64,000 nt of DNA from an uncultured Erysipelotrichaceae bacterium (GCA_902794075.1 CADBGE010000001.1:76603-140602); one strand, 5' to 3'; numbered from the stretch's first letter, positions 2,807 to 52,380 are shown. Numbers and translations are program-made. The notes: a model not told the origin generated them from the sequence alone.

Positions 2807-3544
2807 TTAATCTCCTGTCCAATGACCTCCAGCACCTCTATAATATTCTTTACTTATTCTTTGGCCAAATTCGTATCTTTCTTTTTCCAATTTATCTTCA
2901 GTCTCATCATCAAATACTGGGAAAATATCAAATACAGTAGCATCCCACCTATTTGTGAATGAATTAGTTGCTACAACAATTTTTTTAAGTTTATTATATG
3001 TTGTGTCAGGATATTTTTTTAATGTGTCAATGATATCATTTAAAATATCTATCATTCGGTCTTCCTTAATGTTTGAACTATAAGAATGACCTGTTAAATC
3101 ACCATGCCAACAATACGATAATTTTAATTTATCTGGTTTAACTGATGCATCAATTGGGATAAATTTATTCCATGGATTATTGTCAAATTCATCAGAACTT
3201 TTCTTTAACTTATCGTTAAGCCATTCTTGTTGTTTTTCTGGAGATCTTTTAAGAATTCCTGGTTTACTTTCCTTATATTTTAACCAATGTTCCTCAGCTT
3301 TCTTTAATGCAGCTTCTTTTCTTGCTTGACGTTTATCTGTTTGCGTTTTATTATATTCTTCTATAATAGAAACACGAGCAATTAAGAATTTTGACCATGA
3401 TTCCAAGATACCTTCATTTATCTTTTTCTTGATTTTTTCTGATGAATCATTTATATTAATATCTATAGAATTAATGCATATTCTACCGAAATTTTCAATA
3501 TAATCTTTTTTCCATTCATTTATATATTGAACAAGTGATTTCAT
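2807..3544 (-). CDS. hypothetical protein with MKSL-type N-terminal leader
   Basis: 245 aa. Starts MKSLVQYINE. No recognisable domain. Confidence 0.7.
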   Translation of the reverse strand: MKSLVQYINEWKKDYIENFGRICINSIDININDSSEKIKKKINEGILESWSKFLIARVSIIEEYNKTQTDKRQARKEAALKKAEEHWLKYKESKPGILKRSPEKQQEWLNDKLKKSSDEFDNNPWNKFIPIDASVKPDKLKLSYCWHGDLTGHSYSSNIKEDRMIDILNDIIDTLKKYPDTTYNKLKKIVVATNSFTNRWDATVFDIFPVFDDETEDKLEKERYEFGQRISKEYYRGAGGHWTGD

Positions 3545-39651: not shown

Positions 39652-40035
39652 TGGTGGACCTTGAGGGAATCGAACCCTCGTCCAAGCAATTCAACCTATC
39701 AGCTTTCTACATGCTTGTTTCGTTCGTTAATTTCGGTAACAATCAGCCAAACGAACAAAACCGACCTTTTACCTATCTCATTATGTGAATCTACTCGACG
39801 GTATACTTGAGAGTCCTACCCCGTCCAGTCATCTGTAACAATGCGCTGTATATTCTTAAACCCAGTGACCAAATTTTTGAACCAGCGTCAAGCAGTCAAT
39901 CCTAGATCAAGCTGCGAGAGCAAAAGTATCTTCGCCATCTAAAAGTGTCAATCGAAAGTTTAAAGAGTTCTTCACGATCATTCCTCTGCATGCTTACCAA
40001 TTTGTCAACATTGCTGTCAAATCCAAGTAAGGCCC
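39652..40035 (-). ncRNA. ssrA: tmRNA (ssrA), phage-encoded, tag GEDTFALAA
   Basis: 5' GGGCCUUACUUGGAUUUGACAGC and ...GCAUGCAGAGG resemble the tmRNA consensus. 3' GGACGAGGGUUCGAUUCCCUCAAGGUCCACCA has a T-arm and an encoded CCA. The acceptor GGGCCUU/AAGGUCC contains G3:U70. The tag frame GGC GAA GAU ACU UUU GCU CUC GCA GCU UGA lies at 39936-39907. Confidence 0.9.
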
Positions 40036-46130: not shown

Positions 46131-46296
46131 TCAGGTAAGATGGAATTGAACCACCACTAATATAAATTGATATTTTTAGATTTAGTACAATTAACATAAA
46201 CTACCAAATTCATATTACCTTTTATCCTTCCTGTACACACTATAGATAAAAACCTCCCATACCATCATGGGTGTGCTACCGTTACACCATTACCTG
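46131..46296 (-). ncRNA. tRNA-like gene with about 95-nt internal insertion, anticodon unassigned
   Basis: Perfect acceptor caggtaa/ttacctg, D arm gtgt-aacggta-gcac, T arm ggtgg-ttcaatt-ccatc. The anticodon-position hairpin cccat-gatggt-atggg has a 6-nt loop, and about 95 nt (two hairpins) lie between the variable-loop position and the T arm. Confidence 0.4.
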
Positions 46297-46301
46297 ATAT
46301 A

Positions 46302-46631
46302 TTATTCTTTAACGTCTTTAGACATAATAACTTCATCAGGATAAAATTCTAAAAATGTTTTAAGTACTTCATTATAAAATATATAAGTAACTAAGCCTTT
46401 TCTTGATGAAGTAATTGTTTTACTTAATGTGAAGTAATACTTTTCCGATTTGCCAATCATAGTCTTTCCAAGATCCCATACAATAATTGGTAAAACATTT
46501 CTATCGATCATATCAGAAATCTTTTTAATTATTTCATCAGATTTCATATTAGGTAAAGTACCATATATATGAATGATATTAGAACAATTAGATTTTGATT
46601 TTGTCTTAAATAATGAACTAAGAATATTCAT
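46302..46631 (-). CDS. hypothetical protein
   Basis: The track ORF 46302..46667 starts at a GTG that overlaps tRNA-Pro. The first ATG (MNILSSLFK...) is at 46631. Confidence 0.5.
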   Translation of the reverse strand: MNILSSLFKTKSKSNCSNIIHIYGTLPNMKSDEIIKKISDMIDRNVLPIIVWDLGKTMIGKSEKYYFTLSKTITSSRKGLVTYIFYNEVLKTFLEFYPDEVIMSKDVKE

Positions 46632-46920: not shown

Positions 46921-46988
46921 TGTTTGATTTATCATCGTGCTACCGTTACACTAAGGAGTCGAACCTAATCTTATGATATAATCAAACA
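46921..46988 (-). ncRNA. permuted tRNA-like element: long closing helix + T arm + D arm, no acceptor stem
   Basis: Minus-strand RNA: tgtttgattatatcat-aaga-[ttagg ttcgact cctta]-[gtgt aacggta gcac]-g-atgataaatcaaaca. The ends pair over about 15 bp. The D-arm sequence is identical to that of element 46131..46296. Confidence 0.35.
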
Positions 46989-52231: not shown

Positions 52232-52380
52232 TACCCCAGGTGCGATTCGAACGCACAACTTACGGCTTAGTTCTCGTGTAAGGAATTGAACCTTTATTTT
52301 ACCTGGTCACGAGATTTTGAATTTTTCGTAAAATTCTAACGTAAGAAGGCCGTTACTCTTTCCAATTGAGTTACTGGGGC
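52232..52380 (-). tRNA. tRNA-Arg(TCT) gene interrupted by a 75-nt insertion in the anticodon loop
   Basis: 5' part 52380-52344: gccccag-ta-actc-aattggaaa-gagt-a-acggc-cttct. 3' part 52268-52232: aa-gccgt-aagtt-gtgcg-ttcgaat-cgcac-ctggggt-a. Joined, the loop reads CUUCUAA as in E. coli tRNA-Arg(UCU). The insertion is 52343-52269. Confidence 0.7.

Follow-up and report, generated by a model that had tools for sequence, protein, structure and literature searches.

The window, i.e. the whole 64,000-nt stretch of DNA that was analysed, comes from one 400-kb contig (G000:C1) of a giant gut or rumen phage, with a G+C content of 29%; relatives of this contig are found among the IMG/VR viral contigs. 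The contig encodes RtcB and uses the standard genetic code: long standard-code ORFs cover 86% of it, and reading TAG as sense adds only 1%. The minus strand from ∼43.5 to 52.4 kb of the window holds a tmRNA, ∼20 tRNA genes and two genes for GIY-YIG endonucleases, together with several unusual tRNA-like elements. One of these elements, at 46131–46296, is the subject of this study. Upstream, 6 nt separate it from the stop codon of a 109-aa ORF; its downstream neighbour is tRNA-Tyr, 15 nt away, and a normal tRNA-Pro(UGG) lies at a distance of 360 nt. The features of the window that are referred to below are as follows.

39652–40035: phage tmRNA, separate from the tRNA-like gene.
46131–46296, minus strand: the whole tRNA-like gene, 166 nt including the discriminator A at 46131, with no encoded CCA; supported by its minimum-free-energy fold and the folds of its homologues.
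46921–46988: permuted T-arm/D-arm module in the same array, 625 nt from the tRNA-like gene.
52232–52380: tRNA-Arg(UCU), whose 75-nt anticodon-loop insert is a mini-tRNA module.

Read on the minus strand from 46296 to 46131, the element has the sequence CAGGUAA-UG-GUGU/AACGGUA/GCAC-A-CCCAU/GAUGGU/AUGGG-AGG-[H1]-G-[H2]-GU-GGUGG/UUCAAUU/CCAUC-UUACCUG-A, in which H1 and H2 are two extra hairpins. All its parts are on the minus strand.

46290–46296, minus strand: 5′ strand of the acceptor stem, CAGGUAA (C1), which pairs with 46132–46138; all seven pairs covary among relatives.
46273–46287, minus strand: D arm, GUGU-AACGGUA-GCAC, with U8, A14 and G18G19 in place; identical across family members.
46256–46271, minus strand: hairpin at the anticodon position, CCCAU-GAUGGU-AUGGG, with a 6-nt loop (46261–46266) that contains UGG and then U; all five stem pairs covary.
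46219–46252, minus strand: extra-arm hairpin H1, UUUUAUC...GAUAAAA, with a 7–9-bp stem and an 18-nt loop.
46158–46217, minus strand: extra-arm hairpin H2, UAAUAUGAAUU...AAUUUAUAUUA, with an A/U-rich basal stem of 11 bp and an apical region that contains UUGUAC (46185–46190).
46139–46155, minus strand: T arm, GGUGG-UUCAAUU-CCAUC, preceded by ..AGU, whose U48 can pair with A15.
46132–46138, minus strand: 3′ strand of the acceptor stem, UUACCUG (G72), followed by A73 at 46131.

The minimum-free-energy fold of the window copy is exactly this arrangement of cloverleaf, H1 and H2. Every feature of the original prediction, which had described a tRNA-like cloverleaf with a 6-nt loop at the anticodon position and two additional hairpins, is present. 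The loop of H1 contains GUACAG (46231–46236) and the motifs AUAG...GGAAG. The fold energy is unremarkable, with z-scores of −1.55 for the whole element and −0.8 for the insert alone; since these values are unexceptional for the composition, the single sequence proves nothing, and the case rests on the comparison of homologues.

The element keeps the canonical elbow of a tRNA, with a 7-bp acceptor stem, D and T arms, U8, A14, G18G19 and a T-loop of the type UUCRANY. Different from the elbow, the anticodon loop is not of the canonical form (7 nt, U33 and a purine at position 37); it is 6 nt long in the window copy and, as had been predicted for the window copy, so it is in the relatives G003, RHMF and L144 described below. 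G37, the site of m1G37, is absent; the GG of the loop is followed by U and then directly by the stem. The flanks of the insert (AG.. before H1 and ..AGU before the T stem) match the variable loops of short forms (UAGAU and UAGUU), the A15-U48 pair is possible in every member, and each of the three long members has AGU before its T stem. The flanks and the possible A15-U48 pair place the insert between nucleotides 45 and 46. This is the natural extra-arm site of class II tRNAs, where the L-shaped body best tolerates an appendage. Like the class II tRNAs (Leu, Ser, Tyr and Sec), the element therefore carries its extra structure between nucleotides 45 and 46, with A15-U48 and the AG/AGU flanks kept. 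However, class II tRNAs have one hairpin with a short stem and a small loop, whereas the element has two hairpins of ∼95 nt with large loops, and a 6-nt loop at the anticodon position. The 95-nt insert is single-copy in the 1.8-Mb assembly, on which ground a mobile repeat was rejected.

In default mode, ARAGORN made no call on the window copy. Rfam, including RF00005, gave no match on it either at the gathering thresholds or at E ≤ 10, even when 191 nt were searched alone. These results agree with the earlier view of the element as tRNA-derived but not a recognisable decoder. RF00005 gives the G003 copy 38.2 bits, but to do so the model passes over 104 nt, among them the entire anticodon arm. 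The models of tmRNA and permuted tmRNA did not match the element. An Infernal-type check with the Rfam tRNA and Y RNA models, as suggested with the original prediction, gave no above-threshold match on the window copy; the sole Y RNA match was a 13.6-bit Y_RNA on the opposite strand, compared with a threshold of 38. The ends of the element form a normal acceptor stem, not an end helix of the Y RNA/YrlA type. A known ribozyme or sRNA was rejected for lack of Rfam matches. An intrinsic terminator was rejected; a hairpin with a U-run was flagged in the window copy only, and the G003 and RHMF copies have no U-run. A stop-codon suppressor is ruled out by the standard code of the contig, in which ARAGORN found no suppressor tRNA.

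The original prediction had also pointed out that the acceptor strand CAGGTAA recurs inside the insert of tRNA-Arg, which hinted at a shared origin. The string is indeed there (GACCAGGUAAAA at 52297–52308, minus strand). However, the shared origin was not supported. CAGGTAA occurs 14 times in the window, so that the match is uninformative; the common GGTTCAATTCC is a mere variant of the T-arm consensus; and the tRNA-Arg insertion is an anticodon-loop mini-tRNA module, different from the element's insert in both kind and site.

Homologues of the element were collected in several ways. The G003 copy emerged when phage records with the neighbouring permuted T-D module were searched with the element by BLAST. 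A pattern derived from the window and G003 copies, in which GGT was required in the loop, led to the RHMF copy. A looser pattern and our own covariance model, R1, added further relatives; the pattern for L144 also required GGT. The model R1 scores the window copy at 162.8 bits.

G003 homologue: IMGVR_UViG_3300028886_000055, L126:1496–1653, 5 nt downstream of a permuted T-D module.
RHMF homologue: metagenome contig RHMF01154329 (1.2 kb), L134:475–638, adjoining tRNA-Gln(CUG).
L144:1192–1259: a 68-nt form without insert, with the 6-nt loop AGUGGU, between tRNA-Pro and tRNA-Gln.
L147:1302–1453 (L147a): a long but divergent form, whose loop has 9 nt (AAGGUACAC), whose insert is branched and whose A-CCA end is encoded.

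The known members are few: three long ones, plus one or two that are short or divergent. L145 and L146 also have 6-nt loops but are plainly tRNA-Gln derivatives with U1-A72; they were not counted as members. The operon of L147a consists of tRNA-Lys and three long tRNA-like genes, and is closed by a terminator.

The window, G003 and RHMF copies are barely alignable outside the D arm; natively, all three fold into an acceptor stem, a D arm, a 4–5-bp stem with a 6-nt loop, H1, H2 and a T arm. G003 and RHMF each have an equivalent of H1 with a different stem sequence, and likewise a long hairpin of the H2 type. The main differences in the core are as follows.

Acceptor stem: CAGGUAA/UUACCUG in the window copy, CGGAAAA/UUUUCCG in G003, CAGUCAU/GUGGCUG in RHMF.
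Stem at the anticodon position: CCCAU/AUGGG in the window copy, CCCU/AGGG in G003, CCCUG/CAGGG in RHMF.
6-nt loop: GAUGGU in the window copy, UUAGGU in G003, GUUGGU in RHMF, AGUGGU in L144.

In the model-guided alignment of seven sequences, 97.7% of the core-helix positions are paired, and 16 of the 21 core pairs have changed on both sides (compensatory changes); the D stem is invariant. None of 500 shuffles reached the observed covariation values, and the signal was lost when the partner strand was slid. The alignment was fitted to the model, which favours structure; the effect is nevertheless large. Each of the three inserts (window, G003 and RHMF) folds alone into two top-level hairpins, the first of 30–34 nt and the second of 57–60 nt, a layout that was reproduced by 8, 6 and 5 of 400 dinucleotide shuffles of the three inserts, respectively (1.3–2%). 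Because the core helices covary in diverged homologues, the comparison indicates that the tRNA-like fold is not due to chance, and that the element is under structural selection and is not a dead gene.

The distribution of the family is patchy. Searches of IMG/VR with exact or degenerate patterns that contained the full 5′ half gave no matches; with the D-arm 15-mer alone, the matches listed were ordinary tRNA-Gln, tRNA-Trp and tRNA-His genes. A pattern for the CCC...GGG stem without the GGT requirement returned normal tRNAs only, two scans of species-representative genomes gave no useful matches, and the hits of R1 on 21 large phage records were mostly intron-bearing tRNAs or adjacent tRNA pairs, not members. 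The relatives reached through a 184-aa ORF and through a 147-aa ORF of G003 carry mosaic tRNA arrays without the element. Since close relatives of both the window phage and G003 lack it, the element is a dispensable, accessory cassette. The permuted T-D module at 46921–46988 has the identical D-arm 15-mer, belongs to the same array and is found 5 nt from the G003 homologue. However, the module lacks an acceptor end, and its sequence is 94% identical between the two phages, whereas the element keeps structure and not sequence. On the 1.2-kb RHMF contig no such module was seen; the sole copy of the D-arm 15-mer there belongs to the element.

In each long member, the same G/C-containing palindrome is present in the H1 loop and at the H2 apex, at equivalent positions 46–48 nt apart.

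Window: GUAC at element positions 61 and 109, 48 nt apart; GUACAG (46231–46236) with UUGUAC (46185–46190), 6 bp.
G003: GCGC at element positions 57 and 103, 46 nt apart; GCGCGG with UUGCGC, 6 bp.
RHMF: AUGCAU at element positions 58 and 105, 47 nt apart; AAUGCAUG with UAUGCAUU, 8 bp.

With criteria that were picked after seeing the data, shuffled loop pairs shared a G/C-containing 4-nt palindrome in 2.0%, 3.1% and 1.7% of trials for the three members. By our own rough estimates from genomic word densities, the chance of two copies within ∼95 nt is 0.013, 0.002 and 0.0005. The RNAduplex energy of the proposed pair gave p = 0.013 for G003 and 0.11 for RHMF, and p = 0.375 for the window copy, which is not significant alone. 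Both motifs fall within predicted loops. We infer, with good motivation, a covarying loop–loop (kissing) contact between H1 and H2. Because all three motifs are palindromic, intermolecular pairing, i.e. the formation of dimers, would also be allowed.

The ancestry of the element is suggested by its acceptor end and its loop. C1-G72, G3-C70 and A73 are present in all five members of the C1 type (window, G003, RHMF, L147a and L144), whereas the other acceptor pairs vary. G72 and A73, found at the acceptor end of all five, are the marks of tRNA-Pro; together with G35 and G36, they form the identity set of bacterial ProRS (PMC11229370). In a set of 800 distinct phage tRNAs, C is the first nucleotide of 40 of 45 tRNA-Pro but of 0 of 95 tRNA-Gln. 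When the D arm was excluded, tRNA-Pro made up 7, 9 and 4 of the best 15 neighbours of the window copy, G003 and L144, respectively, against a background of 5.6%. Overall, the window copy is most similar to a tRNA-Pro(UGG) whose D arm differs from its own by one base (GUGUAAUGGUAGCAC, of the L147a type).

The loop is compatible with this ancestry, depending on the side from which it is counted. Counted from the 5′ side, it has the form NN-UGG-U three times and UU-AGG-U once, and may be read as a proline anticodon without nucleotide 37 or 38, the numbering of a 6-nt loop being ambiguous. GG occupies loop positions 4–5 in every member, an observation that is independent of the search only for the window copy, G003 and L147a. 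Counted from the 3′ side, UGGU corresponds to U35-G36-G37-U38 of phage tRNA-Gln, whose D arm the element shares. Among the matches listed, phage tRNA-Gln, tRNA-Trp and tRNA-His commonly have the 15-mer of the element as their D arm, and 77 of the 97 parsed genes that contain it have 7-nt loops, mostly those of Gln. U33 is not conserved; it is A in the window copy and, by the 5′-side count, G in L144. Pure descent from tRNA-Gln fits L145 and L146, with their U1-A72, but not the C1-type members, and was rejected. By sequence, then, the element looks like a tRNA-Pro paralogue. It resembles the bacterial-type (P-type) tRNA-Pro(UGG) in C1-G72, A73, the GG that follows U or A in the loop, the cloverleaf with its canonical D/T elbow, the location in a tRNA array near a normal tRNA-Pro, and its nearest sequence neighbours outside the D arm; it differs in the 6-nt loop, the lack of G37 and (in this copy) of U33, the D arm of the Gln/Trp/His type and the 95-nt arm of two hairpins.

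Taken together, the reading that we prefer, one that could equally well prove right or wrong, is that the element is a functional, structurally constrained paralogue of bacterial-type tRNA-Pro that has turned into a tRNA mimic. Given the tight packing of the array, in which 6 nt separate the element from the stop codon of the upstream ORF and 15 nt from the downstream tRNA-Tyr, the element would almost certainly be transcribed together with the neighbouring tRNAs. Ordinary tRNA end-processing could plausibly excise it, given an intact acceptor/T-arm helix and D arm and intact elbow nucleotides; RNase P would act at the 5′ end, and RNase Z or exonucleases, together with the CCA-adding enzyme, at the 3′ end. 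Maturation of the tRNA type is supported by the related L147 gene, which ends in an encoded A-CCA within a tRNA operon, and by the existence of L144, a short form that has the 6-nt loop but no insert. The product may then be recognised by ProRS through the retained G72, A73 and loop GG. The phage contig is not a candidate source of this enzyme, as all class II synthetase cores were found on other contigs. With a 6-nt loop, no G37 and, in the window copy, no U33, normal tRNA decoding is not expected. The H1 and H2 loops would probably pair, either within one molecule or between two, to give a compact or dimeric appendage. As to the role, we can only speculate that the element is a stable RNA that engages a factor which binds tRNA-Pro, with ProRS as the best candidate; it may be prolylated, and it would not serve as a standard adaptor.

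The alternative that survives best, unlikely as it is, regards the 95-nt insert as an intron. Some endonuclease and the phage RtcB would remove it, which would leave a functional tRNA of ∼71 nt with a 6-nt loop, similar to L144. Indeed, the short form L144 has the same body and 6-nt loop with no insert, RtcB is encoded on the phage contig, the tRNA-Arg(UCU) of the window carries its own insert in the anticodon loop, and Lak megaphages have 'enigmatic', unexplained tRNA introns (Devoto et al. 2019, PMC6784885). Like the Lak introns, of which the window's tRNA-Arg(UCU) is an example, the insert is a stretch of ∼60–100 nt in a tRNA-shaped gene of a phage tRNA array. However, those introns interrupt the anticodon loop of an assignable tRNA and can look tRNA-like themselves, whereas the insert of the element lies in the variable region, at the extra-arm site, and, unlike the tRNA-Arg insert, lacks any tRNA-like module that has a T arm or acceptor stem of its own; even insert-free, the body has no standard anticodon loop. 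No bulge-helix-bulge motif could be placed at the junctions by eye, and no ribozyme family matches. The hairpins and their matching palindromes survive complete sequence turnover, a degree of conservation beyond that expected of an excision signal. L144 is not an insert-free allele but a distant paralogue, the only insert-free form that was found; close relatives lack the whole gene.

More doubtful still is an unconventional adaptor, which would be prolylated by ProRS, enter the ribosome and, by means of a 6-nt loop without nucleotide 37, read CCN abnormally (in a frameshift or doublet-like manner) at particular phage genes. The ProRS identity nucleotides are kept, the loop contains UGG in the window copy, RHMF and L144 and AGG in G003, and the extra arm is located where class II tRNAs tolerate one. 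In addition, loop variants of tRNA-Pro (sufA6 and sufB2) and the loss of m1G37 are classic causes of frameshifting. However, U33 is not conserved, we know of no established natural decoder with a 6-nt loop, and engineered 6-nt loops decode poorly. The 95-nt appendage may not fit the ribosome, and the normal tRNA-Pro(UGG) is encoded nearby.

We consider it very unlikely that the element is a decaying pseudogene, i.e. a duplicated tRNA-Pro or tRNA-Gln that lost one loop nucleotide and gained junk sequence. The absence of the element from close relatives, the unremarkable fold energy of the window copy and the sporadic occurrence of 6-nt or 8-nt loops in phage arrays (15 of 1066 ARAGORN calls) would be compatible with decay. 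However, the helices, including both insert hairpins, are held by compensatory changes in three lineages with almost no common sequence, the acceptor stem is fully paired, and C1-G72, G3-C70, A73, the loop GGU and A15/U48 are kept while their neighbours vary.

A feature that acts at the DNA level is highly improbable. Here, the palindromes, ∼47 bp apart, would be the binding or cleavage sites of a dimeric protein, such as an endonuclease or a regulator of the array; perfect palindromes with a fixed spacing in all three members, and the GIY-YIG homing endonuclease genes of the array, would suit such a protein. However, the palindrome differs from phage to phage (GTAC, GCGC and ATGCAT), so that the specificity of the protein would have had to co-evolve each time, whereas RNA pairing explains the changes directly; the complementarity reaches 2 bp past the palindrome only in the H1:H2 combination, and both motifs are in loops of the predicted RNA fold.

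Finally, the original prediction had reckoned with a conventional fold that a standard tool might find, and formally there is one. When run in intron mode on the whole contig, ARAGORN places tRNA-Ser(act) i(35,75), i.e. tRNA-Ser(ACU) with a 75-nt anticodon-loop intron, at exactly the coordinates of the element. We rejected this scarcely credible model, because its D stem is only 3 bp long, its anticodon stem contains a U·U mismatch and an open pair, and it destroys the covarying CCCAU/AUGGG hairpin. Nor is it reproduced in the homologues; intron mode makes no call on G003 or on the window copy when excised, and calls Asp(GTC) with a different intron position on RHMF.

For the preferred reading, a tRNA-Pro paralogue turned tRNA mimic, the nearest functional analogy is RNA C of phage T4, a stable RNA of the T4 tRNA cluster whose function is unknown (PMC3014915). 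Like RNA C and RNA D of T4, the stable RNAs called species 1 and 2, the element belongs to a phage tRNA cluster and lies beside a gene for a GIY-YIG (Seg-type) endonuclease. Like RNA C, it has paired 5′ and 3′ ends, a canonical T arm and long internal hairpins. However, the predicted fold of RNA C has neither a D arm nor a hairpin at the anticodon position, whereas the element is a full cloverleaf with an appendage. A search of the T4 tRNA cluster with R1 gave no match and detected no homology; the likeness would thus define a loose class of stable RNAs from phage clusters, with no homology family.

Even if it were inert, the element would be a recurrent annotation trap, as it is called tRNA-Ser by the intron mode of ARAGORN. 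Phage tRNA arrays are usually viewed as a supplement to codon usage, or as a replacement for host tRNAs cut by defence nucleases. Our analysis suggests that such arrays may, in addition, be home to conserved derivatives of tRNAs which no longer decode normally, yet have kept the marks of one synthetase and gained a structured appendage. A more specific proposal, which is distinctly unlikely, is that the element is a prolylatable phage paralogue of tRNA-Pro, to which the short loop without nucleotide 37 and the kissing or dimerising extra arm would give a non-standard job, either as a frameshifting or doublet reader of CCN, or outside normal decoding as a proline donor or a ProRS-capturing particle; if one of these were true, a new functional class would be added to the natural tRNA derivatives. 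The 166-nt element is also a test object, both for the behaviour of a 6-nt anticodon loop and for the tolerance of an extra arm by RNase P, the CCA-adding enzyme, ProRS, EF-Tu and the ribosome. It likewise bears on what the unexplained long tRNA-like genes of megaphages do. Should its processing, and its binding or charging by ProRS, be borne out, nature would here use a tRNA body as the scaffold for another RNA domain, and a giant phage would possibly have a new way to act on host translation or tRNA-directed defence.

In all three long members of the tRNA-Pro-like family (the window copy and the L126 and L134 copies), the loop of the first hairpin, H1, carries the same two motifs, AUAG and GGAA(U/G), which flank the palindrome; in the window copy this hairpin lies at 46219-46252. 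The loops read AUAG-UGUGUACA-GGAAG, AUAG-CGC-GGAAU and AUAG-GAAUGCAU, and the shared motifs may form a candidate protein- or RNA-binding site. On the 5′ side, the element is preceded by a 109-aa ORF, whose stop codon (window 46302-46304) lies 6 nt ahead of the first base of the element (46296). Since the stop codon is so close, the 3′ end of the ORF mRNA would be set where RNase P cuts at the element; the proposed arrangement is similar to tRNA punctuation.

In this phage and in G003, an IMG/VR contig (window 46919-47016 and L133:10023-10118, respectively), the copies of the array's permuted T-arm/D-arm module, each taken with 30 nt upstream, share 94% identity, whereas the surroundings, including the tRNA-Pro-like element, are not alignable between the two. 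Owing to this difference, the comparison indicates that the module is either under very strong constraint or recently transferred. Phage tRNA arrays are mosaics; between L165:3400-5000 and L133:9500-11200, blocks of 96-100% identity take turns with unrelated cassettes of tRNAs and tRNA-like modules. One tRNA-Asn in locus L165 is split by a 515-nt insert, and in locus L168 there are tRNAs split by inserts of ~1 kb bearing HNH genes.

Off-size anticodon loops are rare yet recurrent in the phage arrays. ARAGORN identified 1066 tRNAs in 154 phage loci (1.3 Mb), nine with 6-nt and six with 8-nt anticodon loops; the sequences of these loops are unrelated. Long or split genes are listed below together with an RNA ligase gene.

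Long or split tRNA genes and the ligase gene
Window 52232-52380, minus strand: tRNA-Arg(UCU) with an anticodon-loop insert of ~75 nt
L147:1113-1574, IMGVR_UViG_3300028886_000031 (321 kb): three successive long tRNA-like genes of ~180, 152 and 112 nt
L137:570-688 and 2937-3056, IMGVR_UViG_3300031994_000001 (413 kb): related ~45-nt inserts in two distinct tRNA genes
L136:1501-1634, IMGVR_UViG_3300031555_003626: tRNA-Gln-like gene, anticodon split as CUUU, ~62 nt, GAC
G000:C1:259962-261077 (locus L162), outside the window on the same phage contig: RtcB RNA ligase gene, 186.7 bits

The tRNA-Arg(UCU) gene was called by ARAGORN in intron mode only. Its insert has an acceptor-like stem (UCUCGUG/CACGAGA) and a T arm (AAGG-UUCAAUU-CCUU) of its own; it is a Lak-phage intron of the 'tRNA inside a tRNA' type. 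The three L147 genes, which follow a tRNA-Lys and precede an intrinsic terminator, all encode an A-CCA end; ~125 nt separate the D and T arms of the first, and the third contains an insert of roughly 40 nt within the anticodon loop. Both L137 inserts contain GGUUCUUG(U/A)CAA(A)GAAUUAUGCAGCAA and look like members of one short-hairpin insert family that is spreading from tRNA to tRNA. In the split tRNA-Gln-like gene, the acceptor, D and T arms are all intact. The RtcB frame is also intact, 407 aa in length, and the phage enzyme is a candidate for sealing RNA, either in tRNA repair or at the unexplained tRNA inserts.
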